A stretch of 64,000 bases of DNA from Deltaproteobacteria bacterium (GCA_029262375.1 JAJCZM010000008.1:129291-193290), one strand, 5' to 3'; positions 4,925 through 43,744 are shown, counted from the first letter of the stretch. A program made the numbers and translations. Notes: a model not told the origin generated them from the letters alone.

Positions 4925-5308
4925 CGCCGTACAAAGCTGACCGAAGTCGCTGGTTGGTTCGACCATAGCTGCGACAACGAAAGAGGCGGCGCCCCGGTAT
5001 TGTGCGCGCAAGGCCGGGGGCGCGGCGATGTGAGTTGCTGTTCCAGCCTTTCAGAGCGCGTCGGATAGACGTTGGGCATAATCTACAGGTCTTCGCTCTT
5101 ACCATCCTGATGAGCGTTCTCGGCGCCCCACTTCTGTGGTTCTCGCGCGGACTGATGATATCTCCCAGTATCGACCGTGGCTCCACCGCCCCCTCGCACC
5201 CCTCGTGAGGCAGGCTTAGCCGCGCCGATCGATCCAGAATCCGGCGCGCTAAACCCCCGAAATGCGCTATACTTATCCGTGCAACTCATCTCGAGTTGAG
5301 GTCTTATC

Positions 5309-23192: not shown

Positions 23193-24572
23193 TCAGAATA
23201 CGAAACCCGCGCCGACACGGATCTCGTCGGGCTGGTCGCCTGAGCGTGCATCCTGGTTGCGATAGTCGAGCTTGAGCACGACGTTCGGGATCGGCTTGTA
23301 GCTGATGCCCATCTCGTAAGCGTTGCGGTCCTTAGTTTGATCGGGCGCGAAACCGCTCGGCACATCGAACTGCGTATCGTACTTCGAGTACCGCACCCAC
23401 GGCGCGAGATACTGCTCGCTGTTGGGCAAAAGGAACGGCGCAACGTCGTAGGCCAACTCGACGTACCAACCCATCATGTTCTCGGCAATGGTCTCACCAG
23501 CGCCAACGCTCAACACGTCGGCGTCGTCGAGATCCGTATACACACCGAGCGCGCGCGCCTCGAAGCCGCGGTACTTCCACTGCGCGTGCGCTTCGTACAT
23601 CTGCATGAACGCATCCACGGTCGTCGTCGCTGTCGGGTTGCCGTCGATGTCGAATGCCGTTGGGATGTCTTGGTTCTGACCTTGATTGCCGACATAGACG
23701 GAACCGCCGAGATCGAGTCCGGCGATAGGTTCCCAATCCAGACGACCAACCCACGACCAATCGTTGGCCTTTTCTTGCGAGCCCTTCTGACGCCCACCGC
23801 GGATGTTGCCCGACGAGAAGTCGCCGGCGAGCAGGCTCGTGACGACGTATGTCTTGTAGCTCAGTGTCTCGGTGAGATTGCCGTAGATACCGGCGCCGTT
23901 CGCGCGCCAAGTCGATGGAATGATTTGCCGCTCGACGGCGGGGCGATCGTTGCCGTGGAAGAACGGGGGCTCGTGCAACTCGTTGATGAAACCGACCGGC
24001 ATCAACAGTAGGCCGGCTCTCAGGTTCACGAAATCGTTGATCAGGAAATCGAGATAGAGCTGCTCGAGCGAGACCTCGCCGTTGCCACCCGTCGAAGCGT
24101 GCTCGAACTCGATCTCGCTGTTGAGAACGATGCGGTCGTTGAACTTGTAGCCGAGGTACAAAACGAACCGCAGCAGGTCGAAGACGTCGTCCTGCCCCGC
24201 GTCGTCGTCAACGGTACTCTTGAGGTTGAACTCGCCATACCCGCCTATCGAAACCTGTTGCTGAGCGGCGCCGTAGACTTTCGATGCACCCGGTGCACCG
24301 TGTCCGCTCCCCCCGGTCGGCTCACCGCTCACGATGGGATCGGCGACGGCCGGCGCGGAGCGCGACTCTTTCAGCCGTCGCAGTTCCTCGGTCAGAATTT
24401 CGAGTTTGCGCTCGAGTTCATCGACACGCGCGTCTACTGCGGTCCCGATAGCCCCCGTGTCGGCAGCACATGCCGCGGGATTCGACATTTCCACGAGCGC
24501 CAGGAGCGCCAGGAACATTGCACCGGCGCCGGCAGACGCGGTGACTGCGAGTAAGTGTTTGAGTGGTTGCAT
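23193..24572 (-). CDS. Porin-like outer-membrane beta-barrel protein with N-terminal coiled coil (OprO/P-like architecture)
   Basis: ATG 24572 is preceded by GGAGG. Signal peptide MQPLKHLLAVTASAGAGAMFLALLAL...AACA. Coiled coil DELERKLEILTEELRRLKE. Alternating beta-strand pattern and a C-terminal ...VGAGFVF (terminal Phe). The ORF-track start at 24617 is an upstream extension. Confidence 0.6.
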   Translation of the reverse strand: MQPLKHLLAVTASAGAGAMFLALLALVEMSNPAACAADTGAIGTAVDARVDELERKLEILTEELRRLKESRSAPAVADPIVSGEPTGGSGHGAPGASKVYGAAQQQVSIGGYGEFNLKSTVDDDAGQDDVFDLLRFVLYLGYKFNDRIVLNSEIEFEHASTGGNGEVSLEQLYLDFLINDFVNLRAGLLLMPVGFINELHEPPFFHGNDRPAVERQIIPSTWRANGAGIYGNLTETLSYKTYVVTSLLAGDFSSGNIRGGRQKGSQEKANDWSWVGRLDWEPIAGLDLGGSVYVGNQGQNQDIPTAFDIDGNPTATTTVDAFMQMYEAHAQWKYRGFEARALGVYTDLDDADVLSVGAGETIAENMMGWYVELAYDVAPFLLPNSEQYLAPWVRYSKYDTQFDVPSGFAPDQTKDRNAYEMGISYKPIPNVVLKLDYRNQDARSGDQPDEIRVGAGFVF

Positions 24573-24580
24573 GACCAATC

Positions 24581-24625
24581 CTCCGTAATTGATTTTGAAA
24601 TTCATTATCAAAATCAATTACGGAG
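24581..24625. promoter_or_regulatory. Perfect 18-bp inverted repeat (9-nt spacer), AT-rich, overlapping the porin Shine-Dalgarno; contains a Fur-box-like core
   Basis: CTCCGTAATTGATTTTGA (24581-24598) and TCAAAATCAATTACGGAG (24608-24625) are exact reverse complements. GAAATTCATTATCAAAATC (24597-24615) matches GATAATGATAATCATTATC at 13/19. Confidence 0.5.
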
Positions 24626-27465: not shown

Positions 27466-28893
27466 ATGACGCTTGCAGGCCAACTACGCCGCCGCCTACG
27501 CGACGTCGTCGGAGACGAAGGCTTCGTAGACTCCGCCGCCGGTCTGCGCGTCTACGAGTGCGACGGCTACACGATGGAGAAGGCGTTACCCGAACTCGTG
27601 GTGCTGCCTGCCAACACCGACGAGCTGAGCCGGGTGGTACGCCTGTGTCATCGAGAGGGCGTTCCCTTCGTACCGCGCGGCGCCGGCACCGGCGTGAGCG
27701 GCGGCTGTCTCCCCTACGAAATTCCCGTGATGATCGGGACGAGCCGCATGCGGAAGATCCGCCGCGTCGATATCGCGAATCGCCTGATTGAAGTCGAGGC
27801 CGGCGTCGTCAATCTCGAAGTCAGCCGGCAGGTCGAAGCGGCCGGCTATTACTACGCACCCGATCCCTCGTCGCAAAGCGCCTGTACCATCGGCGGGAAC
27901 GTCGCCGAGAACTCCGGCGGCCCGCATACGCTCAAATACGGCGTGACCGTCAATCACCTTCTGGGAATCGAAATGGTTCTGCCCGACGGCGAAATCGTCC
28001 GCCTCGAGCGAACCAACGACATCACCGGCTACGACCTCGCCGGCGTCTTCACCGGCTCCGAAGGAACACTCGGCATCACGACCGCGGCAACGCTACGGCT
28101 CATGCCCAAGCCACAAGCGGTTACGACACTGCTCGCGATCTTCCCCGGCATCGTCGAGGCCAGCCGCGCCGTCTCGGCAATCATTGCGGCAGGCATCGTT
28201 CCCGCGGCACTCGAAATGATGGATGCTCTTGTCATCGAGGCGGTGGAAGCGGCGTACCGCTTCGGCTTCCCGCCGGACGCGGGTGCGGTGCTCATCATCG
28301 AACTCGACGGGCTCGAGGCAGGCCTCGAAGAGCTGTGTGGGCGGGTCGAAGACGCCTGCCGCCAAGCGGCCGCCAGCGAAGTACGACGTGCCGCCAACGA
28401 AGCCGAGCGGGCACTTTTATGGAAATCCCGCAAGAGGGCCTTCGGAGCGATGGGACGTCTCGCACCGAACTACTGCACGCAAGACGGCGTCGTACCCCGC
28501 AGTAAGCTTCCGCAGATCGTCGAGGCAATCGCCGAGATCTCGTCGCGCTACCACTTACGCATCGCGAACCTGATGCACGCAGGCGATGGCAACATCCACC
28601 CGCTCGTTCTGTACGACGACAGCAATGACAACGAAGCAGAGCGCGTCGTCGCGGCAGGCCACGAGATCCTCACGGCCTGCGTGAAGCTCGGCGGATCGTT
28701 GACGGGCGAGCACGGCATCGGTGTCGAAAAGATAGAACTCATGTCGAAGTCGTTCTCCGACGACGATCTGTCGGCGATGGCCGATCTGCGCGACGCGTTC
28801 AATCCCACGGGACTCTGCAATCCGCACAAGATCTTTCCGACCGATCGCGCCTGCATCGAGATCAAACGACCGAGGCCGCGAGGCGGGGGCTGA
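27466..28893 (+). CDS. glcD: Glycolate oxidase FAD-linked subunit
   Basis: PCMH FAD-binding domain (VPRGAGTGVSGG), GEHGIGVEK and a C-terminal NPHKIFP. Followed by the glcE and glcF homologs. Confidence 0.85.
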   Translation: MTLAGQLRRRLRDVVGDEGFVDSAAGLRVYECDGYTMEKALPELVVLPANTDELSRVVRLCHREGVPFVPRGAGTGVSGGCLPYEIPVMIGTSRMRKIRRVDIANRLIEVEAGVVNLEVSRQVEAAGYYYAPDPSSQSACTIGGNVAENSGGPHTLKYGVTVNHLLGIEMVLPDGEIVRLERTNDITGYDLAGVFTGSEGTLGITTAATLRLMPKPQAVTTLLAIFPGIVEASRAVSAIIAAGIVPAALEMMDALVIEAVEAAYRFGFPPDAGAVLIIELDGLEAGLEELCGRVEDACRQAAASEVRRAANEAERALLWKSRKRAFGAMGRLAPNYCTQDGVVPRSKLPQIVEAIAEISSRYHLRIANLMHAGDGNIHPLVLYDDSNDNEAERVVAAGHEILTACVKLGGSLTGEHGIGVEKIELMSKSFSDDDLSAMADLRDAFNPTGLCNPHKIFPTDRACIEIKRPRPRGGG

Positions 28894-28895
28894 TT

Positions 28896-30218
28896 ATGAG
28901 AACCCCGAGCACGCCGGGCAATTCGGACAATCCGGGTAATGCCGGCAATCCTGGCAATCCAAAGTTGGCGGCTGACATCGCACTACCATCCGGATTGACG
29001 GCGGCGCTACATCCGGGGCAGATGCGTCGCGGACGCGGTGCAGACGCCATCGACGACGTCACCCCCGCTTTCGTTCTGACGGTACGCAGCGATGAGGACG
29101 TCGTGCGGGTCGTAGACGAGGCGCGACGCGCCGAACTCGCCATCGTACCGGCAGGCGGCGCGACCAAGCTCGGCATCGGAAACATTGCGCGCGCGCTCGA
29201 CCTGCGCGTCTCGCTCGGCGGCATGGCTTCGATCATCGAGCATAGCCCGCAGGATATGGTCGTCACGGCACAGGCCGGAGTGAGTCTCGCGCGTCTGAAC
29301 CTGGCGCTGGGCAAGCACGGACAACGCATCTGCATCGATCAGGCTGCCGACGATCGATCGACCATCGGCGGCATCGTTGCATGCAACGCGACCGAGAGTT
29401 TCGCGTACGGCTACGGAACGCCTCGCGACCTCGTGTTGGGTATGTCGGTAGTCGATGGAAAGGCCCGCCTACTCAATCCGGGCGGCAAGGTCGTCAAGAA
29501 CGTTTCGGGCTACGACCTCGTGAGAATGTTTACCGGATCCTATGGAACGCTGGGCATCATCACATCGGTGACGCTGCGAACCCACCCGATCCCGCTGGCG
29601 GAGCGCGCGCTCGCGATAGATTGTAACGACATCGTCGAACTCGAAACTCTCAGAGCGGCGCTGTTCGCATCGCATCTCCCACTGGCCTGCCTCGACTTCG
29701 AACTGGCGAGAGAGTCGGGCGGTTGGAGAGCGATCGTCAAGATCGAAGGTACCGCCGGTGAGGTGGATTACCAGCACGAGTGCATCGAGCAGATTGCACC
29801 GACGCGCTGTCATGTGTTCGAGCGAGCCGTGCCCGTTCGCGTAGCCGGCCGCTCGAACGTAGTGCTACGGGTGTCGTCCAAACCATCGGCGGTCGTTGCG
29901 ACCGCACGGGCGATCGCTGACACAATCGGTGATGCGACCGAAATGCCTGCACTGGCCGGCCGGCTCGGCGACGGCATCATGCGCGTTCGCATCCAGGAAG
30001 AAGACCCCCGCCGTGCGCTCAACTTCGTTCGACGCATGAGCGAAGCAGCCAAGCAGGCCGAGGCTTCAGTCGTCATCGAGCGCGCCCCCAGTGAGATCAA
30101 GCGCATCATCGACGTCTGGGGGGAGCGGCCGGCGGGTTTTGCGCTCATGCGCCGACTGAAGGACGCATTCGATCCGCAAGGCATCTTGTCGCCGGGTCGA
30201 TTCGTGGGAGCGCTATAG
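28896..30218 (+). CDS. glcE: Glycolate oxidase FAD-binding subunit
   Basis: Motifs: VPAGGATKLGIGN, GGKVVKNVSGYDLVRMFTGSYGTLGII and DPQGILSPGRF. The N-terminus carries a (G/D)-N-x tripeptide repeat. Confidence 0.75.
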   Translation: MRTPSTPGNSDNPGNAGNPGNPKLAADIALPSGLTAALHPGQMRRGRGADAIDDVTPAFVLTVRSDEDVVRVVDEARRAELAIVPAGGATKLGIGNIARALDLRVSLGGMASIIEHSPQDMVVTAQAGVSLARLNLALGKHGQRICIDQAADDRSTIGGIVACNATESFAYGYGTPRDLVLGMSVVDGKARLLNPGGKVVKNVSGYDLVRMFTGSYGTLGIITSVTLRTHPIPLAERALAIDCNDIVELETLRAALFASHLPLACLDFELARESGGWRAIVKIEGTAGEVDYQHECIEQIAPTRCHVFERAVPVRVAGRSNVVLRVSSKPSAVVATARAIADTIGDATEMPALAGRLGDGIMRVRIQEEDPRRALNFVRRMSEAAKQAEASVVIERAPSEIKRIIDVWGERPAGFALMRRLKDAFDPQGILSPGRFVGAL

Positions 30219-30220
30219 CG

Positions 30221-31483
30221 ATGCACACGGACGACGATCCCGGTCTGCCTTGCGTGCACTGCGGTCTGTGCCTCGACACCTGCCCGACCTATCGAGTGCT
30301 CGGCACGGAGGCCGACTCACCCCGCGGTCGCATCTACATCATGCAGGGGATCAAGCGCGGCGAGCTGGCGTTGGGCTCCGCGGCGGTGTCGCATCTCGAC
30401 GGTTGCCTCGGATGTTTGGCCTGCGAAACTGCCTGCCCATCCGGCGTCAGCTATGGCGAACGCATCGAGGAATTCCGTCCACGTGTGCGCGCCGCTATTC
30501 GGCGCAAGCCATGGCGTCGGCTCGTCGGCTACGTAGCGTCGAACGATCGAATGTTCACGCTCGGGCTCGGTGTCGCGGCGACTATGGATCGCTTCGGCTT
30601 ACACTCGCTGCGTCGCCGAATACGCGGACTCGATATCTTTCCACGCGCGCCGCGCACACGCCGAGATGGCGCGCTGGCTGAGATGCCTCCGAGAGAGCGC
30701 AGTCGCATCGCCCCACCCGCTGAGTCAAAACTCGACGTCGCACTGCTCACCGGATGCGTTGGCGATCGGCTGAAGCCGGAAATCAATCGCGCGGCCGTCG
30801 AAGTGCTGCATCGAAACGACATTCGCGTTGCCAACGATCAAGGGCTCGGGTGTTGCGGAGCATTGGCGATGCATTCGGGCGACGAGACTGCGGCGCGCGA
30901 AGATGCAAAGCGCAACGTTCGAGCGTTCACGCGATCGGGCTTGGATCGCGTCGTCACCACCGCCGCCGGATGCGGCGCAATGATCAAAGACTATGGTCGT
31001 CTGCTCAGGGATGATCCCGAACTCGCCGAAGAAGCACGCGCGATGTCGGATCGCACGGTCGACGTTACCGAGCTTCTCGTCGAGATGGGATTCGATGCGC
31101 CGGATCTATCGCGAAGCAGTCGGCAAGCGCCCGGCAAGGTCGTCTATCACGATGCTTGCCATCTCCTGCATGCCGCCGGCGTAGAAGCCGAGCCGCGCAG
31201 CGTCATCGAAGCAGCTTCGGGTGCACCTCCGATCGATCTAGGCGAAAACAACGTCTGCTGCGGCAGCGCGGGCAGTTACAATCTCGATCATCCGAAAATG
31301 GGATTGGCACTGGGCGCACGCAAGGCGCAGCTGGTGGCTGAAAAGGATGCGCAGGTAGTGGCGGTCGGCAACGTCGGTTGCATCCTGCAGCTCGAACGCG
31401 CACTCGCGATGGCCGGACATGACGCGCGGGTGCTACACCCGGTAGAACTTCTAGCGGCGGCTTACGAACGAGACACCGATTGA
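30221..31483 (+). CDS. glcF: Glycolate oxidase iron-sulfur subunit
   Basis: Two 4Fe-4S motifs, CVHCGLCLDTCP and CLGCLACETACP, followed by cysteine-rich CCG-type domains (GCCG..., CCGSAG). Confidence 0.85.
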   Translation: MHTDDDPGLPCVHCGLCLDTCPTYRVLGTEADSPRGRIYIMQGIKRGELALGSAAVSHLDGCLGCLACETACPSGVSYGERIEEFRPRVRAAIRRKPWRRLVGYVASNDRMFTLGLGVAATMDRFGLHSLRRRIRGLDIFPRAPRTRRDGALAEMPPRERSRIAPPAESKLDVALLTGCVGDRLKPEINRAAVEVLHRNDIRVANDQGLGCCGALAMHSGDETAAREDAKRNVRAFTRSGLDRVVTTAAGCGAMIKDYGRLLRDDPELAEEARAMSDRTVDVTELLVEMGFDAPDLSRSSRQAPGKVVYHDACHLLHAAGVEAEPRSVIEAASGAPPIDLGENNVCCGSAGSYNLDHPKMGLALGARKAQLVAEKDAQVVAVGNVGCILQLERALAMAGHDARVLHPVELLAAAYERDTD

Positions 31484-31490
31484 TCCGTCG

Positions 31491-32024
31491 TCAGCTCGTT
31501 CCTTCCGACCACGGAATATCGTCGATACGCGATTCGATCTCGTTGAGCCGGCCGATGACGCCACTGAGATCGATGACGGGATCGTAGTCTGCGCCGCGCG
31601 TTCGCACGGCTTGTTCGAGTTCGCCGAGTCGTTGGTGCAGCAGCATGAGCTCTTCGCGCGTACGTATGCGGGCGACGTGATCCATCTTCAGCTCGACGTC
31701 GTCGACACGTTCGTCCAGTTCCACCAAGGCCGACGTCGAGGCAATGCCGAGCAGGGCATAGACGTCGTCGAGCACGGTCGAAACCCGGAGCTGTTCCATG
31801 AGATCGCCACCACGCTCGGCAAGAATGGCACCTAGTCGCGATCCGGCATCGATGAAGCCTCCGAGGCCGCCGCGACTTGCAGTCATGAGCCCGGTAAGTG
31901 CTCTGGCGATATCCGATCCCAGGGCTTCTTCATGCGCTCCGGCTGCTGCCGGCTTTACGCGCATCGAGAAAATAGGCGCGGCCATGCCATCGCCATCCGC
32001 ATCTCGTATGTCTCTACTGTTCAT
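31491..32024 (-). CDS. Hypothetical coiled-coil protein (start uncertain)
   Basis: The C-terminal ~150 codons are GC3-rich and heptad-like (LVELDERVDDVELKMDHV...LHQRLGELEQAV...LNEIESRIDD). ATG 32024 is preceded by GAGGAGG 9 nt upstream. The ORF stays open to 32375, so longer forms are possible. Confidence 0.4.
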   Translation of the reverse strand: MNSRDIRDADGDGMAAPIFSMRVKPAAAGAHEEALGSDIARALTGLMTASRGGLGGFIDAGSRLGAILAERGGDLMEQLRVSTVLDDVYALLGIASTSALVELDERVDDVELKMDHVARIRTREELMLLHQRLGELEQAVRTRGADYDPVIDLSGVIGRLNEIESRIDDIPWSEGTS

Positions 32025-32474
32025 CCGCCCGACCTCCTCGTTCATTGCCTCGGCCGCTGTTGCAGCCTCAGGCACCACCACTCGACCGATGGGCGCAGCA
32101 CCGCCGGCCGCCATCACGCGGGCAAGGGCGCGCATTCTGGCAATACGCGCCGCGTGGACACCGAGATCGATAGTCTCGCAAGTAGAAACGACCGCCGAGG
32201 CCGCTGCGCGGTAACGCGGCGGCAGTCTCGGATCGTTCCTCCTCGACCAGTGTGGATCGGGGAGCGCGCGCAGTTTTCCTGCCAATGCACGCTCTCGCGG
32301 CTTGCTCGGCTGCAAGCGGGCCGTCTTGCGTCGCCCACAAATATGTTGCGAACGGCTTCTCGGCACCAAAATCACCCGGTGTCAGAGCCGATGATACACG
32401 GCGGCAGGTAGGGTGGGCAATGCCGGGACCGGATTCGCCGAGTAGTCCTTAGATCGGTGTTTGACGAGTCTCCC

Positions 32475-33236
32475 CTAGTCGAGGGCGAACCGTACCGGAA
32501 AACGTACGCTGTAGGCCTCACCGGGGATCTCGTCGGGCATCGCCGGGAACGGATCGGAACGACGCACCCAATCCTTCGCAACACGCTCGAGCAGATCATC
32601 GGGGAGTGCGGCGAAGGTCTCGAGAGCGACGACGCGCCCACTGCGGTCGAGTTCGACGCGTAACACCCCCTCGCCTTCGAGCCGTCTGCGGCGAAGCGTC
32701 GCTGGGTAATACTTATGGCGATCGAGCCATGCCGCCAGAGTCTGCTCGTAGCGAACCGATGCTCCCGCGATCTCTGCTGCCAAGGCCGATTCGGCCGGAG
32801 ACTCGCTGTGCGCCAGCTGTGTTGGGGCCGCTTCGACAGGAACTACCGCCGTTTTCGCTATCGGCTGCTTTGTAGTGCGTGAGGCCGGAGTCGGCGGCGG
32901 CGTCGGCTTAGCCGGGGCGCCACGCAGCGCGGGTTCGTGGGTTTGGCGGATTTCGGAATGTCGGCCGGCCAGATTCTGCTCGACCGGCGGCACAACCGGT
33001 GCCGCTTCGGTCGGCTTCTCTGCAGCGACCGACGTCGTAATTGTGCTCGGCGTACTCGGCGCGCTGACGCTACTGGGCGCAACCTCGCCGGTCGGGAGCG
33101 CCGAGAATCGCAGCGTCAATTTCGCGGGCGCCATCTCAGGCGTCACGGGATCCGTGCGCCATCCCACCAAAACGATCGCATGCAAGAGCACGGCAGTCGT
33201 CAGGCTCAATACGAATCGCGGATCGGAACGTGTCAC
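32475..33236 (-). CDS. tonB: TonB family energy transducer
   Basis: N-terminal TM helix, a Pro/Ala-rich spacer (PTPPPTPASR...) and a C-terminal TonB domain (YYPATLRRRRLEGEGVLRVELDRSGRV). Confidence 0.8.
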   Translation of the reverse strand: MTRSDPRFVLSLTTAVLLHAIVLVGWRTDPVTPEMAPAKLTLRFSALPTGEVAPSSVSAPSTPSTITTSVAAEKPTEAAPVVPPVEQNLAGRHSEIRQTHEPALRGAPAKPTPPPTPASRTTKQPIAKTAVVPVEAAPTQLAHSESPAESALAAEIAGASVRYEQTLAAWLDRHKYYPATLRRRRLEGEGVLRVELDRSGRVVALETFAALPDDLLERVAKDWVRRSDPFPAMPDEIPGEAYSVRFPVRFALD

Positions 33237-33700
33237 GGCGCCGCACGCTCGGCAGGACTGACGGCCTTGGCGGCGCTGGCGAGATTGGCAGGCTCCACCG
33301 CGCCCCTGGACTCGGCCATCAACGCAACCGACTCACCTCCGCCTTCGCGAACCGCGTCGAGAACCGAGAGCAGCTGCGCTACGTCGACGTGTTCATCAGC
33401 CTGGACGGCCACTTCCTTCGAAGAGCTTTCAGTGATTCGGGCGGCGATTGCTGAGGATAGTCCGCCCGCCGACACCGCGATGCCGCCGACACGAACACTA
33501 CCGTCGGCCAACAGGGAAACAGTGATCGGGGACTCAGCAACGGCTCGTGCGGTGCTCGAACCCGGCAGATCCAGACCGATCGCGCGCGGAGTGACGAAGC
33601 TACTCGTCAGCAAAAAGAAGATGAGCAGTAAGAACACAACATCGACCAGAGGAGCCATATCGATACGGCTCGATACGCGCGCGCGCCCATCAAACTGCAT
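33233..33700 (-). CDS. exbD: Biopolymer transport protein ExbD/TolR
   Basis: SRIDMAPLVDVVFLLLIFFLLTSSF. ATG 33700 overlaps the exbB 3' end; the 3' end overlaps the tonB start by 4 nt. Confidence 0.85.
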   Translation of the reverse strand: MQFDGRARVSSRIDMAPLVDVVFLLLIFFLLTSSFVTPRAIGLDLPGSSTARAVAESPITVSLLADGSVRVGGIAVSAGGLSSAIAARITESSSKEVAVQADEHVDVAQLLSVLDAVREGGGESVALMAESRGAVEPANLASAAKAVSPAERAAP

Positions 33701-34421
33701 GATCGGCGGCCTCCTCGTGGCGATGCGCGCGATCAGCGCGATCTGAGGTATCGAAATCAGCGTGCGCCAGTTTCTCAAAACTCCCGAGGACGACGATCGA
33801 CGCGTCCTTCATAGAAGCGCGCACGCGATCTACTTCGCCTTCGAGCAGGTGAAAAGCCGCCATCGACGGGATTGCGATCGTGAGACCGTAAGCCGTCGTG
33901 AGGAGCGCCTGCCAGATTCCGCCCGACAGCAAACTCGGATCAACGGTCGAACCGGAGCGCTCGACCTGCATGAAGGCGAGGATCATGCCGATGACGGTGC
34001 CGAGAAGCCCCACCAGCGGACTGAGGTGAGCGATCGACGACAGCGCCCTCAACCACGATTCAAGATCGCGAAGCTCGCGCGTACCGATGCGCGCCACTTC
34101 CGCCTCGGCGGCCGTCGCCGACTTTTCTGGATCGGCGCCCACACGAATGGCCGCTTCCATGACTCTGGCCGTCGGATGGCGGATGACTTCGAGGCGCTCG
34201 CGCGCGGCATCGAGGCGACGATCGACAACGAGTTCAATGATGGGATCGACGAAGGCGGTCCGACGAAGCCCCGACCGACCAAACTGCCAGAGCTTCGCCA
34301 GCAGGATGGCCGAGGCAAAGACGCTCAGGGCCAATAGGACCCCCATCACCGGGCCGCCGCGGGCAATGATGTCGAGCGCGCTCATCGCGGCGATATCCTC
34401 AGGAATATCAGCCATTTGCAA
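33690..34421 (-). CDS. exbB: MotA/TolQ/ExbB proton-channel protein
   Basis: Three TM helices. LSPLVGLLGTVIGMILAF is typical of ExbB/TolQ. Confidence 0.85.
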   Translation of the reverse strand: MQMADIPEDIAAMSALDIIARGGPVMGVLLALSVFASAILLAKLWQFGRSGLRRTAFVDPIIELVVDRRLDAARERLEVIRHPTARVMEAAIRVGADPEKSATAAEAEVARIGTRELRDLESWLRALSSIAHLSPLVGLLGTVIGMILAFMQVERSGSTVDPSLLSGGIWQALLTTAYGLTIAIPSMAAFHLLEGEVDRVRASMKDASIVVLGSFEKLAHADFDTSDRADRAHRHEEAADHAV

Positions 34422-34481
34422 GTTTGGACCTGGAAAAATGCGGGTCTAGAGGCGAATCGGTTTGACTACAAAAACGAAATT

Positions 34482-34500
34482 GACAATCATAATCAAAATC
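34482..34500. promoter_or_regulatory. Fur-box-like site in the divergent exbB / FMN_bind intergenic region
   Basis: GACAATCATAATCAAAATC matches the classical Fur box GATAATGATAATCATTATC at 15/19. TTGACA at 34480-34485 could be a -35 element. It shares 14/15 nt (TCAT[A/T]ATCAAAATCA) with 24602-24616. Confidence 0.4.
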
Positions 34501-34539
34501 ACTTAGCGGAAACGCGGCCGATGGCCGTACGCCGCGCCG

Positions 34540-35115
34540 GTGAAAGATAGCAGAGCCAGCATGCAGAAAACGACACTAACCGGCCTCGCGGTCGCAACAG
34601 TTACCGCGATTTTCCTATCGAGCGTACCCGCCGCCGCTACCGTTTTTCATGCGCGTAGCCAAATGTTCGAAGTCGCCTTCCCACAGGCCGAGAGCGTCGA
34701 CGCCAAAGACTACTTCATTACAAAGGAGCAACGCGCCGCGATTCAACAGCTGGCGGTTTCGGGTCTCGATTCCGATCTGATCACCGTCTACACCGCGAAG
34801 CGCGGCGAAGAAGTACTCGGACACGCCATCCTCGACACGCATGTCGTACGCACGCTGCCCGAGACGTTCCTCGTGGTTCTCGATCCCGACGGTAACGTCG
34901 CAGCCACCCACATTCTCGCGTTCCACGAGCCGCTCGAGTACATGCCGAGCGATCGTTGGCTGGCACTGCTCGAAGACCGATCCCTGACCAACGACTTGAG
35001 ACTCGGTCGCGATATCGCCGGCATCACCGGTTCTACTCTCAGTAGCCGCGCGGTTCTCGGCGGCGTACGCCGCGCGCTGGCTATCTACGAGGTCCTTCTC
35101 TCGGAGAAAAACTGA
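34540..35115 (+). CDS. Exported/signal-anchored FMN-binding (FMN_bind) domain protein
   Basis: N-terminal hydrophobic segment LTGLAVATVTAIFLSSVPAAA. The C-terminal DIAGITGSTLSSRAV (35020-35046) matches the [ST]-G-[AS]-T covalent flavinylation site of NqrC/RnfG-type domains. GTG 34540 or ATG 34561 is the start. Confidence 0.7.
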   Translation: MKDSRASMQKTTLTGLAVATVTAIFLSSVPAAATVFHARSQMFEVAFPQAESVDAKDYFITKEQRAAIQQLAVSGLDSDLITVYTAKRGEEVLGHAILDTHVVRTLPETFLVVLDPDGNVAATHILAFHEPLEYMPSDRWLALLEDRSLTNDLRLGRDIAGITGSTLSSRAVLGGVRRALAIYEVLLSEKN

Positions 35116-35619
35116 GTGCGATTCGTCGTAACCGGCGAGTGGACGCGCAATCGCCTACTCAAGGTGATCGTGTGGTGCTTCCTGCTCTACACATTCTTGC
35201 TCTGGATCACGAATGCGGGCCTTTTCTTCTCGAAGATGAGTCTCAACCCCGCATCGGTCGTCGATTACTACGGCGGGAACGAAGAGAAGTTCATGCAGCC
35301 GAAGTCATTGCTCGGCCTGCTCGAAGTGCTCCACTTTCACGGTTTCGCGATCGGCATCATGCTACTCACGCTGACCCATCTTCTGCTCTTCGTGCCGTTG
35401 TCGATGGAGATCAAGGCGATGGGCATCGGCCTGTCGTTCTTTGCCGGATTCGCCAACGAACTGTCCGGCTGGGGCGTTCGTTTCATCCATCCCGGATTCG
35501 CCTACGCGAAGATCTTTTTCTTCCTTACCCTCGAAGGCGTCATCCTGTTCCTGATGCTGGCCGTCGGACGCGCACTACTGTTCGACCAGCCCAGCAACTA
35601 CACCGCGTCCGAACGCTGA
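35116..35619 (+). CDS. Small 4-TM membrane protein with clustered histidines (unknown family)
   Basis: 167 aa, with GTG directly after the upstream stop. It has four hydrophobic helices and LEVLHFHGFAIGIMLLTLTHLLLF (three His in or near TM2). Confidence 0.55.
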   Translation: MRFVVTGEWTRNRLLKVIVWCFLLYTFLLWITNAGLFFSKMSLNPASVVDYYGGNEEKFMQPKSLLGLLEVLHFHGFAIGIMLLTLTHLLLFVPLSMEIKAMGIGLSFFAGFANELSGWGVRFIHPGFAYAKIFFFLTLEGVILFLMLAVGRALLFDQPSNYTASER

Positions 35620-35645
35620 AGCTTTTGTCCGAAATTCTCACCAGC

Positions 35646-36608
35646 GTGAGTCGATACTATGCGCGCGGGCTAGCCCTCTGCGCGCTGATGCTGGTGTTGA
35701 TAGCCGGCTCGAGCGTGGCTCTGGCCGCTACCGCGCGCGGCGGAAACGTCGTCATGGGAACCGTGCTCGAGATCACGGTGGTTGCGGACGATCAGAACAC
35801 CGCCAACGATCTGATGCGCAGCGCCTTCGATGTCGCCAGGCATTGGGACGATGTGCTAACGACCTGGCGCGAAGACGGCGAACTGGCGCAGCTCAACGCA
35901 ACCGCGGGCGTCGTAAGCCCGGTAAGCGACGACCTTCTCAGGGCGATCGGCCTGATGTTGAAATACTCGCTGATCACCCAGGGCGGCTTCGACCCGGGTG
36001 TGGGCCCCATCGTCGAAGGTTGGCGACGCGGAGACCCGGAGCCGGGTCCGCGCGAAGGCGAGTCCTACGACATCTACAGAATACGCACTGCAGTATCCGT
36101 CGAGGAAGGTGGCGTACGCATGAGACGCGGCGCCGCACTCGACTCCGGCGGCATCGGCAAGGGGATCGCACTCGACGGCATCGTGCGCTCCTTCGGCAAC
36201 AAGGCGAAGGCTTTCTACGTGGACTTCGGCGGCTCGAGTCAGATCGCCGCAGGGAAACCGGAGGACGGAGCGGAGAGCTGGAAGGTCGTTGTCGCCGGCA
36301 ATACCCGAGGTTCAATCCACGGAACTATTGATTTGGTCGACGCTTCGCTCTCGACATCTCGCGCACTGCCGCCGTCGGATCCTGCGGGAAGTATCATTGA
36401 TCCGCGCACGCTTACGGCCGTGCGACCGCCACGTCTTGCGACCGTATGGGCGAAGAACGCGATCGCTGCGGAAGCCTGGTCGACCGCACTGATCGTTCTG
36501 GGCGCCGAGGGAGTCCGTATCGCCGAGCAGGCCGGTGTCGAAGCCTTCGTCGAAATCGACGGGAAGGTCACAAAGACCGGCGGCTTCCCGATTCAGCCGC
36601 TGCGCTAA
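35646..36608 (+). CDS. apbE: FAD:protein FMN transferase (ApbE family)
   Basis: Motifs: VMGTVLEITV and LDSGGIGKGIALD, typical of ApbE. Signal-like N-terminus YARGLALCALMLVLIAGSSVALA. No ATG lies near the start, so GTG 35646 was chosen (TTG 35625 is an alternative). The 489-aa ORF-track model is an artefactual upstream extension. Confidence 0.8.
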   Translation: MSRYYARGLALCALMLVLIAGSSVALAATARGGNVVMGTVLEITVVADDQNTANDLMRSAFDVARHWDDVLTTWREDGELAQLNATAGVVSPVSDDLLRAIGLMLKYSLITQGGFDPGVGPIVEGWRRGDPEPGPREGESYDIYRIRTAVSVEEGGVRMRRGAALDSGGIGKGIALDGIVRSFGNKAKAFYVDFGGSSQIAAGKPEDGAESWKVVVAGNTRGSIHGTIDLVDASLSTSRALPPSDPAGSIIDPRTLTAVRPPRLATVWAKNAIAAEAWSTALIVLGAEGVRIAEQAGVEAFVEIDGKVTKTGGFPIQPLR

Positions 36609-36626: not shown

Positions 36627-37259
36627 CTAACGAAGTCCGAATGCGCGCCGGCGTGCATCGCGCGCCCGTAGGATCGCTTCGAGCGCGGCGAACGCGAAGA
36701 AGAAGTACCCCGGCAGCGCATAGATTCCACGGAAGTGGTCTGTCATCTGTGCGGGACCTGCGATCCCTGCGTACATTGCGATGAAGAACGCACCGAACAT
36801 CATTAGAAAGCCTCCAGGCGATCGAACGAATGATGCCACCTGCGCTGCGACGACCTGCCGCGATCGTACAGTCACGAACAATCCCCAGCCCAACACCGGT
36901 GCTCCGAAGTAGAGATGGGTGCCCTGCCCCAGAGCGAGGGCCAACGGATGATTGAGCGAGTAAATGGCGACGAACAAGAGTGACGCCGCGGCGATCTCAC
37001 TAACTGTCGCAGTGTCGTCGCCTGCTCGCGCCGCGGCCACGAATCCCACGAATCCCAGACCTGCGAGGATGGTCTGCGCGATGTCGATGGGGCCGAACTC
37101 CGCTGAGCCCGCCGTCATAAAATCACGACCGGCACCGAGAATCGCGGCGTGCACGGCCAGCGACGCGAGTAGCGCATACGCCGTCAGCCGGGCAAGCAGA
37201 AACCATCCGTCACGAATATCGTGACTGCTGGCGGAACCGGACTGGATGCCCATACCCAT
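36627..37259 (-). CDS. Hypothetical polytopic membrane protein
   Basis: 210-aa ORF with 5-6 hydrophobic segments and GC3-rich codons. No recognisable motif. Confidence 0.45.
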   Translation of the reverse strand: MGMGIQSGSASSHDIRDGWFLLARLTAYALLASLAVHAAILGAGRDFMTAGSAEFGPIDIAQTILAGLGFVGFVAAARAGDDTATVSEIAAASLLFVAIYSLNHPLALALGQGTHLYFGAPVLGWGLFVTVRSRQVVAAQVASFVRSPGGFLMMFGAFFIAMYAGIAGPAQMTDHFRGIYALPGYFFFAFAALEAILRARDARRRAFGLR

Positions 37260-39637: not shown

Positions 39638-40957
39638 TCAGCTCGTCTGAGTACTGCCGAGAGACGCATCGAAGAAATCGAAACTCGAGTCGTTGAGCGG
39701 GAAGAGCGCAGCGTTTGCGTGACTCTCTATCCCTGCGAGCGTACGCAACGCCTGCTGGATGTCCTTCGGTTCGATTCGTACACCGGACGGCGAGATCTGA
39801 AGCGTCGTCGGGTCCAACGACTGGGCCTCATGGGTCTCGGTAGTCGCGCCGATCACTCGGTTCGTCCAGTCGACGCCACGGCGCATGAAGAGCGTGCTAC
39901 CGATCGGCCAGTGATCTTTCCCATTCTCGTCGTTGTACCAAGGCGTACGGCCGAACTCAGAGTTCACGACCACGACGAGGCGGTCGTCGATGCCCATCGC
40001 TTCAGCAGTATCCCAAAGATATTCGATACCGCGCACGAGCATCGACAGGGGCGCGTGGTGCTCTGCATCATGATCCTCGTGAGTGTCGAAACCCCACATC
40101 TGCAGATGCGCACTGACGCTAACGCCGGCCTGGAAACAAAGTAGAGCGAGCTGGGCCTGTTGCAGCAGGTAATTCGTATTTCCGTCCGTATCGGTCGAGC
40201 TAACGAGTTCATCGGGCAGGATATCGGCAAGCGCAATGAGCTGGTTGTTGGTGGAACGCGCTTGCAGCAGCGCATCCATGTTCGCTTGCGTGCGCGGAAG
40301 TAAGTCGGTGTCGCTACGCAACGCGGCCAGCCGCTCGCTTCGATAACGTGTGATGACATCGAGTTCGTCCGCTTCATGATAGACGTTGTCGCCCCATGGT
40401 ACGGCGTTCGGGCGCGCCAAATTGCGTAGTGCACCTGTGTCCCCCAGCAACGTGTATTGCGTGAGGCCTGCCGTCTCGCGGTAGCCACCGTTCGTAATGA
40501 AACCGAGCGGCATCTCCGTTCCATATGCAGAAGCGACCAATGCCGCCCACGATGGATAGCCCGGCGAAATACGCCCACTCCAATTGTGTCGTACACCGGT
40601 ATCGTGAGACTCGGTAAGCGCATCGACACCATTCACGACCAGCATGTCGTCATGGAAACGATCGAACAGAGCCTGATTGACGGCGTAGGGGGCATATTCG
40701 ATCGGGCTGCCCGCGATCGTCTGCACACCCGAAGTGGTAGCCCACTGATTGATGATAGGGGCACCGCCGGGATTTACTTTCGGATCGCAGAAACTCGTGA
40801 CGTCCCAGCCACCTTCCGCCGCTATCTGCACGTAGAGAGGACCGGTGTAAGGTCCCGTGCTCTGCGCGTACGCTCGCCGTAGCGGTAAAGGCGCAACCGC
40901 CGTCAGGCCGGCCATGCCCATGAGCTTCAAGAATTGTCTTCGATCAAACTTCGCCAT
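39638..40957 (-). CDS. DUF1501 (sulfatase-like) protein with twin-arginine signal
   Basis: Tat signal MAKFDRRQFLKLMGMAGLTAVAP. VVVVNSEFGRTPWYNDENGKDHWPIGS matches the EFGRTP...GxDHW signature of DUF1501. Confidence 0.75.
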   Translation of the reverse strand: MAKFDRRQFLKLMGMAGLTAVAPLPLRRAYAQSTGPYTGPLYVQIAAEGGWDVTSFCDPKVNPGGAPIINQWATTSGVQTIAGSPIEYAPYAVNQALFDRFHDDMLVVNGVDALTESHDTGVRHNWSGRISPGYPSWAALVASAYGTEMPLGFITNGGYRETAGLTQYTLLGDTGALRNLARPNAVPWGDNVYHEADELDVITRYRSERLAALRSDTDLLPRTQANMDALLQARSTNNQLIALADILPDELVSSTDTDGNTNYLLQQAQLALLCFQAGVSVSAHLQMWGFDTHEDHDAEHHAPLSMLVRGIEYLWDTAEAMGIDDRLVVVVNSEFGRTPWYNDENGKDHWPIGSTLFMRRGVDWTNRVIGATTETHEAQSLDPTTLQISPSGVRIEPKDIQQALRTLAGIESHANAALFPLNDSSFDFFDASLGSTQTS

Positions 40958-40962
40958 CTTCT

Positions 40963-43509
40963 TTATTCGTGAAGGAATTTGTAGTCGCCCAACAGATACG
41001 CGAGCACCGCGGTCCAGCCTCGCATGACATGATCGGGGTCACCCGAGACCAGGGTCTCGTCCTGCCAGAACGGCGCGTTGCAGTGGCTGCCGCCCCAACT
41101 CAGGAACTGCCCGCGGTTTTGCGCAATTCGCAGCGCGCGTATCTCTTCGAACAACGCGATCGTACGATCGACCTCCGCATCGTTCGTCGAAAGCGTCTCT
41201 CCAAGAAAGCGGTCGTGCAGCAACACCACGTTGTTGCGGAAAGCCTGCTCGTCGACGGCCGGAGTCGTGTCGGGCTCCACGTAGGGGAACAGCGTGCGAC
41301 TACCGGCAAGGGCCGAGAACTCATAGACCACGATGCGGCACGCCATCTCGTTCGCCAGGCGCTCGACAACCGTACTCATCATCGCGTTCATGCGCTCCGC
41401 GCGCGCGATGTTGCCGTCTGAATCTATGCCGCCGTAGAAATAGCGATACCGCTCGAGCAACTCGTGCCAGGTAGGATCCCAATCGGGCGCCCATACCTGA
41501 CCCGTTACCGACGCGACTTTTCGGTCGAGCTGCTCCGGCGTAAGTAGCCGCTCGCGACCTGCGCCCGCATATACCTGCTCGGTCTCCCCTTGCTCCGAAC
41601 CCGTGAGGCGCGTAGCCGTCATCAAGGGGCTCATCAACATCTCGAGGAGAAGATCTTTGATGTTCAGTGCGCCGTTCGCTGCGGTTCCCGCGGCCCCATC
41701 GGCGAACAGGCCGGCCAGGCGGTCAATCTCATCCTGCTCGGCGCTCCACGCCGCGAACGTTTCGGCGTACGAAGGATCATCCACATCGGTGGGACGCGCG
41801 GTCGGACTACGTCCGAACATGCCGGGCCACCAGAACTCTACCGCCCCACGCGGGAAGCGTTGGTCGTTCACGATCTGGGCGGCAAGCCACTGCAACGAGT
41901 GGTCATTCTCGCTGCTCGGCATCACCAAACCGTTGAATCCCGGGCTGCGCATGTCGCGATACCAGAGGTCGCCCCACTGATACAGATCGCCGCCTTTGTA
42001 TGTCCAGGGAAGCGAGTCGTTGTCCGAGATTCTGAACTGTCCCATGTCGTCCCAGTTTTGAAACGCACCGGCGATCGGATCCATCACCGTGTGACAGACG
42101 GTACAATTCACATTGTTGAGCGTCGGGTTCTCGGTGTTGAGAATCGCCGGATCACTCGTACGCGGCGCAAGAGATTCGATATCGACACCGAGAAAGAAGC
42201 GCCACGTATACCGCGAGCGTCTACGGTTTCGATTGCTCGCCGACGAAGGATAACGATTGAGAAAGATCGGCGACGACAGGATTCCGGCGTGCGGGAAGTT
42301 CGGAAGTCGGTAGCCCTCGTTGGTGACTTCACGCCAGTCGTCGAAATCATCGCGATCGGGGAACACCATATCGGGGACGTAGATCGAGCCCGAGTAGGGA
42401 TTCACCATCATGTAGTCGGCGGTTAAGACCTCCGACCATGGCCTCTCGTTGTTCGCCACGTGCGCGATGAGCCGTAGAGGTTCACGCGCCAACGAACGAT
42501 TCATGCGCTCGTAGGTAAGCCAGTCGTCTTCAGGTTCCGGCGTCTCGCCGGCTTCGTTGACGCGGTCGAGTAGGTGCGGGTAGGAGTACTCGCTTCCTAG
42601 TGCCGCGAAGCCATCCATGTTCCCATACAGTAATCCGTCGGTATGAATCTGATCGTTCGCCGCTTCCATGAGGAATGCGTCGAAATCATCGCCCTGCATG
42701 AGCGAACGTATGGTCTGGCGCAACGTCGATTCGTTCCCGGAGGCGACCGTCGCACGCTCGGAGTCCGTCGGGAGCCTGCCGGCAAACAAGATGGCGGCGC
42801 GGCGCAGCGTCGCCGACCAATCCTGGTTGGACAAGCCCGCATAAAAGTCGGCACTCGACGAAGTTTCGCATGCGACAGGGGTATCGAACCGATCGACCAA
42901 CTCAACGAGGTTCTGGTGAAGTGTGCTCGCCTCGGTCATCCCGAGTCGCTGGCCGCCGTAATGCGATACACCGAGCGGCTTGCTGAGAAATAGCGTACGT
43001 CCCCCCGGGGTCACCGACTCATCGGTAAGCGCACGAATCACTTCGTAGTTGGTCGTGAGGTAGTCGGGCTGAGAAGCGGCGGTCAGAACATATCGCGTAG
43101 ACGCGGCCACGCCGGCGCTTTGATGGCAGGCGATGCAATCGGTCAGGATCGGACTCCAGACCTGCTGAAAGAAAAAATCGTCGTCGTTGACGCAGATCGC
43201 CGCGGATCCTCCAGGGCAATCGAGCGTCACGGGTTGACCGACCGCGCTACCGAGGAGGGTCAATGCGTCGGTCGCACTGACGGTACCGTCATCGTTGACG
43301 TCGCAGACGCTCATCGCACAGCTATTGATACCGACCGCCGCCCCCAGCGCGCCGAGCGCGTCGGTTGCTGTGACGACACCATCGTCGTTGAAATCTCCGC
43401 AGGCGGTTTGCGCGGACGCGGGCGCCGCGATCGCAAACACGAGAGCGATCACGAACAGCGGCATCAGCCACGATCGGTATTCCCGACGTTTGCGGTTGGA
43501 GATCTGCAT
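40963..43509 (-). CDS. Secreted multidomain protein with two dockerin-type repeats and two CxxCH motifs (Planctomycete-type DUF158x/159x-like partner of DUF1501)
   Basis: Signal peptide MQISNRKRREYRSWLMPLFVIALVFAIAAPASA. Dockerin-type repeats DFNDDGVVTATDA and DVNDDGTVSATDA (43240-43395). CIACH at 43123-43137, plus CTVCHTVMDPIAGAFQNWDDMGQF. Confidence 0.65.
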   Translation of the reverse strand: MQISNRKRREYRSWLMPLFVIALVFAIAAPASAQTACGDFNDDGVVTATDALGALGAAVGINSCAMSVCDVNDDGTVSATDALTLLGSAVGQPVTLDCPGGSAAICVNDDDFFFQQVWSPILTDCIACHQSAGVAASTRYVLTAASQPDYLTTNYEVIRALTDESVTPGGRTLFLSKPLGVSHYGGQRLGMTEASTLHQNLVELVDRFDTPVACETSSSADFYAGLSNQDWSATLRRAAILFAGRLPTDSERATVASGNESTLRQTIRSLMQGDDFDAFLMEAANDQIHTDGLLYGNMDGFAALGSEYSYPHLLDRVNEAGETPEPEDDWLTYERMNRSLAREPLRLIAHVANNERPWSEVLTADYMMVNPYSGSIYVPDMVFPDRDDFDDWREVTNEGYRLPNFPHAGILSSPIFLNRYPSSASNRNRRRSRYTWRFFLGVDIESLAPRTSDPAILNTENPTLNNVNCTVCHTVMDPIAGAFQNWDDMGQFRISDNDSLPWTYKGGDLYQWGDLWYRDMRSPGFNGLVMPSSENDHSLQWLAAQIVNDQRFPRGAVEFWWPGMFGRSPTARPTDVDDPSYAETFAAWSAEQDEIDRLAGLFADGAAGTAANGALNIKDLLLEMLMSPLMTATRLTGSEQGETEQVYAGAGRERLLTPEQLDRKVASVTGQVWAPDWDPTWHELLERYRYFYGGIDSDGNIARAERMNAMMSTVVERLANEMACRIVVYEFSALAGSRTLFPYVEPDTTPAVDEQAFRNNVVLLHDRFLGETLSTNDAEVDRTIALFEEIRALRIAQNRGQFLSWGGSHCNAPFWQDETLVSGDPDHVMRGWTAVLAYLLGDYKFLHE

Positions 43510-43744
43510 GAACAGGTGATGCAGCGTTCGCGTATTCGGGCGCAACATCGGCGCTATCGTACGAGCAAACGCTGGGCCGCACGTCCGGCTCCGCTACTGT
43601 GGCAATTTCACCCGCACATCGTGGCAGCGCCACGGTCGTGGCGACGTACTACCGTCAGCGGCGTGCATTCGCCGCACACCCATATGCACAACTACAAACG
43701 GTTGCGCACGTAGAGACTCGCGCTGTCGGTACTGTGAATAGGCG

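Follow-up and report, generated by a model that had tools for sequence, protein, structure and literature searches.

The DNA analysed here, hereafter the window, is a stretch of 64,000 nt from a genome labelled Deltaproteobacteria bacterium (GCA_029262375.1, JAJCZM010000008.1:129291-193290), given as a single strand from 5′ to 3′, and the subject of this work is a group of genes at 32475-36608, part of which could encode a flavin-based redox module for iron acquisition repressed by Fur. Genes were called from an open reading frame (ORF) map combined with Pfam and NCBIfam scans, signal peptides were judged by inspection, without SignalP, and the identities of the genes in this interval can be taken as nearly certain. 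Three of them lie on the minus strand and match their Pfam families with scores exceeding the cut-offs: exbB (33690-34421, starting at ATG 34415 or TTG 34421; MotA_ExbB PF01618, 96.5 bits), exbD (33233-33700 in an ORF extending to 33778, with a likely ATG at 33700 that overlaps the end of exbB; ExbD PF02472, 98.6 bits) and tonB (32475-33236; TonB_C PF03544, 39.6 bits; TIGR01352, 38.7 bits, over its cut-off), whose product shows a Pro/Ala-rich linker and a C-terminal TonB_C domain. The other three are on the plus strand and encode an FMN_bind protein of 191 amino acids (34540-35115, with an alternative ATG at 34561; FMN, flavin mononucleotide), a His-rich membrane protein of 167 amino acids with four transmembrane (TM) segments, hereafter the 4-TM protein (35116-35619), and an exported ApbE, FAD:protein FMN transferase (FAD, flavin adenine dinucleotide), of 320 amino acids (35646-36608). 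The TGA stop codon of the FMN_bind gene directly adjoins the GTG with which the 4-TM gene starts (35115/35116), which strongly indicates that the two are translationally coupled, and a gap of 26 nt separates the latter from apbE. The divergent sets are separated by an intergenic region of 118 bp (34422-34539) with a GC content of 50%, compared with 60% across the window. The initial annotation of this DNA had thus been right in the order and strands of all six genes and in describing an AT-rich intergenic region of about 120 bp.

The FMN_bind protein, assigned to PF04205, has RnfG (9eri_G, E 0.016) as its closest solved relative, whose AITGSTITS aligns with GITGSTLSS of the window protein. The complete flavinylation motif, read in translation, is DIAGITGSTLSS at 35011-35046 on the plus strand, in which the predicted FMN acceptor is Thr166 (codon 35035-35037), within T-G-S-T; the initial annotation had correctly noticed a flavinylation site here, but its interval, 35020-35046, spans only GITGSTLSS. 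When 74 members of the FMN_bind family were aligned, the acceptor position was occupied by Thr in 71 and by Ser in three, and the motif took the form G-[AS]-[T, rarely S]-[L/M]-[ST], mostly after S, T or A. The published flavinylation motif is D-x-x-[S/T]-G-A-[S/T] (PMC12052999); compared to it, the A-G-I-T-G-S-T of the window has Ser for Ala and the Asp two residues further upstream, and the orthologs of the gammaproteobacterial Methylococcaceae carry the canonical D-G-I-S-G-A-T. At the N-terminus the protein was thought to have a signal anchor; instead, by inspection, it resembles a cleavable Sec signal peptide, with the junction after ..PAAA and before T (family consensus ..APARA before Q). 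The apbE product matches PF02424 with 130.8 bits and ApbE/Ftp structures in the PDB with E 6e-12 and weaker and, from its likely start at GTG 35646, begins with a signal-peptide-like sequence. Taken at the sequence level, these features strongly indicate that ApbE is exported, as previously claimed, and that the FMN_bind protein is secreted and is a predicted ApbE substrate with a conserved acceptor Thr.

Relatives of the module were collected by a pattern scan, taking one genome per species, which yielded 80 loci whose neighbouring genes were compared by phmmer and by all-against-all clustering of ORFs. These loci are labelled as Candidatus Binatia, which include the closest relatives of the window, as Bdellovibrionota, Wallbacteria, Entotheonella, Krumholzibacteriia, Cloacimonadota and Methylococcaceae, or come from metagenome-assembled genomes (MAGs) labelled Myxococcota or Deltaproteobacteria. 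The gene immediately upstream of the 4-TM gene encodes FMN_bind in 76/80 loci, or 76 of the 77 that could be evaluated, three being cut by contig ends, and the same pairing was observed in Methylovulum and in Aquificota, where the two-gene core occurs alone with the 4-TM domain duplicated in tandem. This strongly indicates that the FMN_bind and 4-TM pair is the universal core of the system. An apbE gene follows in most loci of Binatia, Myxococcota, Bdellovibrionota and Wallbacteria, that is, in most non-gammaproteobacterial ones, and none was found within 6 kb of the module in Methylococcaceae and Aquificota. No NqrB/D/E/F or RnfA/C/D/E partners were present among the recurrent neighbours of the 80 loci or beside the genes of the window. 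In the remaining neighbour families, the scanned representatives had no relation to the module, being enzymes or transporters such as an AMP-binding enzyme, an amino-acid transport permease and a short-chain dehydrogenase, and these families were regarded as background synteny.

As a separate observation, the only evaluable locus in which the 4-TM gene lacks an FMN_bind neighbour is that of a Methylomagnum MAG (L064), where the solitary gene (4409-4918, plus strand) lies beside a hemerythrin-like gene (5028-5423, minus strand).

The most frequent partner of the module, overlooked in the initial annotation, is a porin-like outer-membrane β-barrel of about 450 amino acids, whose gene is located directly upstream of the FMN_bind gene in 53/80 loci. 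In the window, tblastn with the barrels of relatives identified a copy, 38-59% identical to them, at 23193-24572 on the minus strand, about 10 kb away from the module; it encodes 459 amino acids with a signal peptide, an N-terminal coiled coil and the C-terminus ..VGAGFVF, and by homology this gene is recognised as the displaced first gene of the flavin module. The family is characterised by a signal peptide, one or two coiled-coil segments, the strongly conserved junction ELKSxYGLGPAASKVYG and a barrel ending in ..GFxF/Y, with weak Pfam matches to OMP_b-brl, Porin_O_P and BBP2. About 420 amino acids remain once the signal peptide is removed, no plug or TonB-dependent receptor domain was matched in Pfam, and the mature N-terminus shows no conserved TonB-box-like motif. 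The start codon of the window copy is preceded, at a distance of 20-45 nt, by a Fur-type operator (24591-24615, with matches of 15/19 and 14/19). In the same place, a perfect inverted repeat (24581-24625) with arms of 18 nt, CTCCGTAATTGATTTTGA and TCAAAATCAATTACGGAG, separated by 9 nt, has the Fur-like box at its centre, and its gene-proximal arm includes the GGAG of the likely Shine-Dalgarno sequence GGAGGATTGGTCATG; judged by its sequence, the repeat could, as RNA, hide the ribosome-binding site of the barrel gene.

The other Fur-type operator lies between the divergent exbB and FMN_bind genes. Here GACAATCATAATCAAAATC at 34482 matches 15 of the 19 positions of the Fur consensus GATAATGATAATCATTATC, as had been claimed, and a further 15/19 match overlaps it at 34476, the two 19-mers forming at 34476-34500 an array of hexamers, GAAATT GACAAT CATAAT CAAAAT C, with which the region's only sigma-70-like promoter match (plus strand, 34462-34490) overlaps in its second hexamer. 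When both strands of the window were scanned, matches of at least 14/19 were found elsewhere solely at the operator of the barrel gene; moreover, a weight matrix built from the sites of relatives only assigned 23-31 bits to both regions and never more than 12 bits to the rest of the window. Since the window holds just two such places, by the consensus and by the matrix of relatives, the Fur site is far beyond chance. Among the relatives, sites with at least 14/19 matches were counted in 400 bp around the start of the first gene of the operon and were found in 32/67 evaluable loci from several phyla, compared with a background of 23 site clusters in the other 693 kb, equal to 0.013 per 400 bp (nominal binomial P about 7e-42, a value that overstates independence because the loci are phylogenetically related). 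Matches of 16-17/19 lie just beyond the 400-bp range in two further loci, L046 and L072. Most Binatia sites are 7-1-7 palindromes of the type TGAAAAT-N-ATTTTCA, those of the clade of the window being nearer to TGATAAT-N-ATTATCA. It is strongly indicated, on sequence grounds, that Fur-type operators precede both transcription units of the window as well as orthologous operons from several phyla; Fur control is well supported only in the high-GC lineages.

In six gammaproteobacterial loci (L048, L049, L053, L058, L075, L078) the barrel gene is preceded, at a distance of about 70 nt, by a AATGAnAATGATTTGCATTT-like element, possibly a divergent form of the Fur site, though its match to the classical box is weak.

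The genes found around the module in the relatives are consistent with an iron-responsive function. In eight loci (L001, L002, L005-L008, L012, L024) a fur homolog is located upstream of the Fur-boxed FMN_bind operon, either immediately, as in L001 (4851-5312, plus strand) and loci of the same type, or upstream of the gene that heads the operon in L005-L007, L012 and L024. The latter gene, present in six loci (L004-L007, L012, L024) directly upstream of FMN_bind, encodes a protein of 837 amino acids in which a di-haem cytochrome c is fused to an FTR1/EfeU-type permease. In addition, a bacterioferritin gene (TIGR00754, 208 bits) directly follows apbE in most of ten loci. A role for the operator in binding PerR, Zur or Mur, with the module devoted to a periplasmic redox task other than iron acquisition (repair of oxidative damage, detoxification or respiratory extracellular electron transfer), has to be weighed against these neighbours, and we regard it as very improbable. 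In fact, in NCBIfam the neighbouring regulator scores 122 bits with Fur models, although it also reaches 88 bits with PerR and 48 bits with Zur; the boxes have the TGA-type half-site of Fur, not the TTA of PerR or the TCG of Zur; and the recurrent neighbours are iron-specific, namely the FTR1/EfeU-type permease, bacterioferritin and exbBD-tonB. It is true that flavinylated FMN_bind proteins serve many oxidoreductases (PMC8238504) and that the loci of Aquificota and most of those of Methylococcaceae are without iron genes or a clear Fur box, but a terminal oxidoreductase is never encoded alongside the module among the recurrent neighbours of the 80 loci. In the lineage of the window, control by a Fur-family regulator is highly likely.

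The position of exbB, exbD and tonB next to the flavin genes led the initial annotation to propose a functional tie to TonB, which the survey of relatives did not support. The three genes occur within 6 kb of the module in only 7/80 loci, all of the clade of the window (L009, L013, L017, L022, L025, L027 and, with tonB alone, L016), and clade-specific hidden Markov models (HMMs) of ExbB, ExbD and TonB revealed no further linked loci. Other Binatia, Bdellovibrionota, Wallbacteria, Entotheonella, Methylococcaceae and Aquificota have the flavin module without TonB genes and, even inside the clade, none of the three is left in L011 and L016 retains tonB alone, with the flavin module intact in both. 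The synteny of FMN_bind, 4-TM and ApbE genes with exbBD-tonB, on which the proposed tie depended, is thus for the most part not conserved in the relatives. On the other hand, the TonB-linked loci share the wider synteny of the window, as does a 91%-identical relative (L083), and the ancestral order of the clade, as deduced from these sequences, is tonB-exbD-exbB, Fur box, barrel-FMN_bind-4TM-ApbE; the barrel gene has gone from this position in the window and in L009, which has no barrel gene nearby.

A mechanistic dependence of the flavin module on the adjacent TonB-ExbB-ExbD would require either that it reduces ferric siderophores delivered by a receptor encoded elsewhere, or that the barrel itself is energised. 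The divergent layout around one Fur operator, which the window shares with L083 and 6-7 species-level relatives, and the 231 PepSY-type flavinylation clusters with a TonB_C (PF03544) gene in the survey of Méheust et al. (PMC8238504) could be read in this sense. However, besides the narrow distribution and the losses just described, the barrel, of about 420 amino acids in its mature form, has neither a plug or receptor match in Pfam nor a conserved TonB-box-like N-terminus, and no TonB-dependent receptor was found among the large ORFs scanned in the window; this explanation appears improbable. The earlier statement that no such receptor is adjacent was correct, although the usual outer-membrane partner of the module does lie in the window, 10 kb upstream. 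A shared control of TonB and flavin genes through one Fur operator in this clade is plausible and, probably, the TonB genes are a co-regulated neighbour belonging to the same iron-starvation regulon, rather than a mechanistic component of the module.

Downstream of tonB, the window encodes a coiled-coil protein (31491-32375, minus strand) with no Pfam or NCBIfam match, a homolog of which accompanies tonB in the clade; its real length is probably about 180 amino acids, as called in L083. In L011, where the TonB genes are missing, the homolog directly adjoins FMN_bind.

More than 1,000 homologs of the 4-TM protein exist in the protein collection, and through their annotation the protein is assigned to the functionally uncharacterised family PF27139 (Aq_1264_TM), which was precomputed on all 120 homologs listed, including P0001 at 95% identity. 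The exact sequence of the window protein has no record, and a close relative, P0002 from locus L083, served in its place. No Pfam match was obtained even at E≤10, in a copy of Pfam without the PF27139 model, none was found in NCBIfam, and a sequence-profile search of the PDB gave no match. In the 4-TM proteins of Binatia and Methylococcaceae, which are about 43% identical, E70, H73, H75, T85, T87, H88, R122 and K132 are invariant, and conservation reaches 90% or more at E115, H125 and E140. The AlphaFold2 model of the monomer is a four-helix bundle (predicted local distance difference test, pLDDT, 82.8; predicted template modelling score, pTM, 0.77) with helices at 8-41, 65-92, 97-123 and 128-155, in agreement with the description of a 167-residue protein with four TM segments and clustered histidines given in the initial annotation. 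Both termini are predicted to be cytoplasmic, because of the positive-inside distribution of charges and of the extra TM segment preceding ApbE in fusion proteins; therefore, E70, H73 and H75 would be near the periplasmic end of TM2 and H88 near its cytoplasmic end. In Foldseek searches of the PDB, the monomer retrieved only generic helix bundles (best E 0.49, query TM-score up to 0.47), and the model of a tandem form (pLDDT 89.0, pTM 0.84) gave a best E of 0.34 with a query TM-score of at most 0.24. Membership of the PepSY, MsrQ, DUF4405, cytochrome b561 and Nqr/Rnf subunit families was rejected, because Pfam, NCBIfam, the PDB profile search and Foldseek gave nothing specific; from FezC, the protein was set apart by the Pfam and fold searches, not by direct sequence comparison.

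An exhaustive HMMER search of 1.84 billion representatives (E≤1e-3) retrieved 639 members of the Aq_1264_TM family, including domains fused to ApbE (P0242, P0245, P0246) and tandem pairs with (P0297) or without ApbE. In the tandem 8-TM proteins, copy 1 keeps only E70 and H73, copy 2 keeps H75 and H88, and H125 is lost. As H73 is present only in copy 1 and H75 and H88 only in copy 2, the sequences argue that the working unit of the 4-TM protein is a dimer, with a putative asymmetric H73/H75′ site near the periplasm and H88 as a second functional residue on the cytoplasmic side; a single bis-His site shared across protomers is possible. An arrangement of two b haems on two pairs of TM histidines was considered and rejected: the tandem keeps three, and in the single-domain form H73, H75 and H88 are invariant and H125 is conserved at 90% or more. 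Among the 639 members, one representative (P0261) combines Aq_1264_TM with PilZ; this architecture and that of P0281, described below, may reflect genuine regulatory fusions or else frameshifts that arose in assembling metagenomes.

Considering this evidence together, we somewhat favour the interpretation that the three plus-strand genes and the barrel constitute a Fur-repressed, envelope-spanning, flavin-based redox module for iron acquisition; the role in iron acquisition, taken alone, is probable, and that of the 4-TM protein as an electron conduit has slightly less than an even chance. The part of the initial annotation that described an iron-repressed, extracytoplasmic, ApbE-flavinylated module is supported by the Fur boxes in 32/67 loci, the iron-gene neighbours, the conserved acceptor Thr and the fusions of 4-TM and ApbE domains. 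In the proposed mechanism, Fur would leave its operators when iron is limited, and the Glu/His-rich porin-like barrel would admit iron species to the periplasm. Electrons from a membrane or cytoplasmic pool would reach the covalently attached FMN by way of the 4-TM dimer, in which H73/H75′ would hold a redox cofactor close to the periplasmic face and H88 would lie close to the cytoplasmic one. The reduced flavoprotein would then reduce Fe(III), as such or in chelates, to Fe(II), which could be imported by a separate permease, such as the cytochrome c-FTR1 protein encoded in the same operon of some relatives. Protein-bound FMN is known to reduce ferric chelates well but to oxidise Fe(II) poorly; this chemistry, together with the occasional presence of the cytochrome c-FTR1 permease in the operon, which recalls the pairing of reductase and oxidase-permease in yeast, favours the reductive direction.

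The main alternative concerns the 4-TM protein, which could itself be an inner-membrane permease for Fe(II) or another metal, the flavoprotein acting as a reductase supplied by an unlinked donor. In such a permease, E70, H73 and H75 would form a periplasm-facing 2-His-1-carboxylate site and T85 and H88 the exit, in agreement with the presence of conserved Glu, His and Thr on one face of TM2 and with three, not four, invariant His in the pseudo-dimer, and barrel, periplasmic protein and permease would complete an uptake route. Domains of the DtxR-C/FeoA-like and PilZ types on the cytoplasmic side, seen in single architectures, would typify transporter regulators; nevertheless, P0281 is a lone metagenomic representative and could be a frameshift artefact. 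Moreover, as a permease the 4-TM protein would leave the universal two-gene core with no electron donor for the flavin, an FTR1 permease is already present in the operon of some relatives, the ApbE fusion indicates a role around the flavoprotein, and no likeness to a known transporter fold was detected. For these reasons we judge the permease function unlikely.

Several observations weigh against the interpretation of the module as a Fur-controlled redox pathway with the 4-TM protein as electron carrier. The 4-TM protein showed no likeness, in Pfam, PDB-sequence or Foldseek searches, to known haem or electron-transfer membrane proteins, its three invariant histidines in the pseudo-dimer are too few for two bis-His haems, and the single representative P0281, which carries Aq_1264_TM with DtxR-C (Fe_dep_repr_C) and FeoA-like domains, would suit a metal permease at least equally. 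The FMN_bind assignment is marginal, scoring 23.7 bits with a gathering score of 22, and the orthologs were likewise flagged only as weak or faint FMN_bind; in addition, the TGST motif of the window has Ala, not Asp, at position −6. As regards regulation, the TGAAAAT-N-ATTTTCA variant of many Binatia resembles what we take to be actinobacterial Zur boxes, and in the operons of Methylococcaceae and Aquificota the classical box is weak or absent (11-15/19, mostly not above the local background), so that Fur control is not claimed for these groups. Finally, neither an electron donor nor an Fe(II) permease is encoded in the window, in whose 64 kb tblastn found no homologs of Fur, bacterioferritin or FTR1, and the published literature contained no experiment that we could find on any member of the Aq_1264_TM family.

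The similarities of the module to known systems help to define its position. Five classes of electron transfer across the membrane in association with flavinylation were described by Méheust et al. in 2021, and their iron-linked clusters, which include Fur repression, contain PepSY-like/FoxB, MsrQ-like and P19/FTR1 proteins with an FMN-binding protein (PMC8238504); Huang et al. in 2024 added the DUF4405 and FezC cytochromes (PMC11334425). Iron reduction and assimilation have been associated with flavinylated systems whose partners are of the PepSY, MsrQ, P19/FTR1 and DUF4405 types (PMC8238504, PMC11334425). The module shares with these systems the exported ApbE, a predicted FMN-binding substrate outside the cytoplasm and a small polytopic partner whose TM histidines are conserved, as well as probable Fur control, co-location with FTR1, TonB or other iron genes and the predicted periplasmic reduction of Fe(III). 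It differs from them in that the partner belongs to PF27139, as a putative 4-TM dimer or an 8-TM tandem without a PepSY, Ferric_reduct or DUF4405 Pfam match, in the dedicated coiled-coil porin-like barrel of the operon and in the presence of only three invariant histidines; the solved FoxB (7ABW) was not among the Foldseek hits listed for either AlphaFold2 model. The Aq_1264_TM family is mentioned neither by Méheust et al. (PMC8238504) nor by Huang et al. (PMC11334425), and no account of PF27139, aq_1264 or this combination of genes was found in the literature searched. The module, as interpreted above, would function like the known flavinylation-associated iron systems but is outside their membrane-protein families.

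With NqrC and RnfG the module has in common the FMN_bind domain and a predicted ApbE-dependent motif for Thr-linked FMN, with an identical ITGST in RnfG (9eri_G); by contrast, no NqrB/D/E or RnfA/D/E genes are nearby, the signal peptide looks cleavable and the 4-TM partner is unrelated. Reductive iron uptake is well known in yeast, where the ferric reductase Fre1 works with the oxidase-permease Fet3/Ftr1, and in the bacterial FtrABCD and EfeUOB systems. The relatives in which the cytochrome c-FTR1 permease heads the same Fur-boxed operon combine, in this respect, a reductase module with an FTR1-type permease; the window, unlike the yeast system, has no FTR1, and its FMN would be covalently bound to a soluble periplasmic protein rather than being part of a transmembrane flavocytochrome or a cupredoxin. 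As for the TonB genes of the window, they are ordinary, having the three-gene order, the domain content and the Fur box in the promoter region of other Fur-regulated exbB-exbD-tonB operons, with no TonB-dependent receptor linked.

Other genes in the surroundings were also noted. Convergent with the end of apbE, 36627-37259 on the minus strand encodes a multi-pass membrane protein of 210 amino acids with no family match, which has a weak homolog in L009 (E 2e-07) and a gene for 222 amino acids at the same position in L083. Between the barrel and the TonB genes, 27466-31483 on the plus strand contains a glycolate-oxidase-like GlcD/GlcE/GlcF set, consisting of two FAD_binding_4/FAD-oxidase_C proteins and an Fe-S CCG-domain protein, in the same order as in L083. 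Further away (39638-43548, minus strand), a protein of 439 amino acids is encoded beside one of 861, and their counterparts in L083 were flagged as DUF1501 and as weak Dockerin_1 plus faint PSCyt3, respectively; a link of this pair to the flavin module is improbable.

Extracytoplasmic protein flavinylation occurs in roughly half of bacteria, and many ApbE clusters have no recognised transmembrane electron route. In this context, we tentatively propose, with somewhat less confidence than an even chance would warrant, that FMN_bind and Aq_1264_TM, with the barrel and ApbE, represent a previously unrecognised Fur-controlled, envelope-spanning pathway of iron acquisition, distributed in at least eight phylum-level lineages, whose membrane part could be a redox protein of new fold or a redox-coupled Fe(II) permease. 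The Aq_1264_TM family, with its 639 representative clusters, gains in any case a testable context, made of an obligatory pairing with FMN_bind, fusions to ApbE and an operon that has Fur boxes and its own outer-membrane barrel. If the proposal is true, the module would provide a new membrane component and an outer-membrane component for reductive iron uptake, and would be a further class of flavinylation-linked transmembrane electron transfer in addition to the five classes of Méheust et al. and to the DUF4405 and FezC types. The distribution of the module points to a capacity for iron acquisition in the little-known lineages Binatia, Entotheonella and Wallbacteria and in methanotrophs, in which metal supply limits methane oxidation, and the culturable carriers Methylovulum and Hydrogenivirga bring experiments on it within reach.

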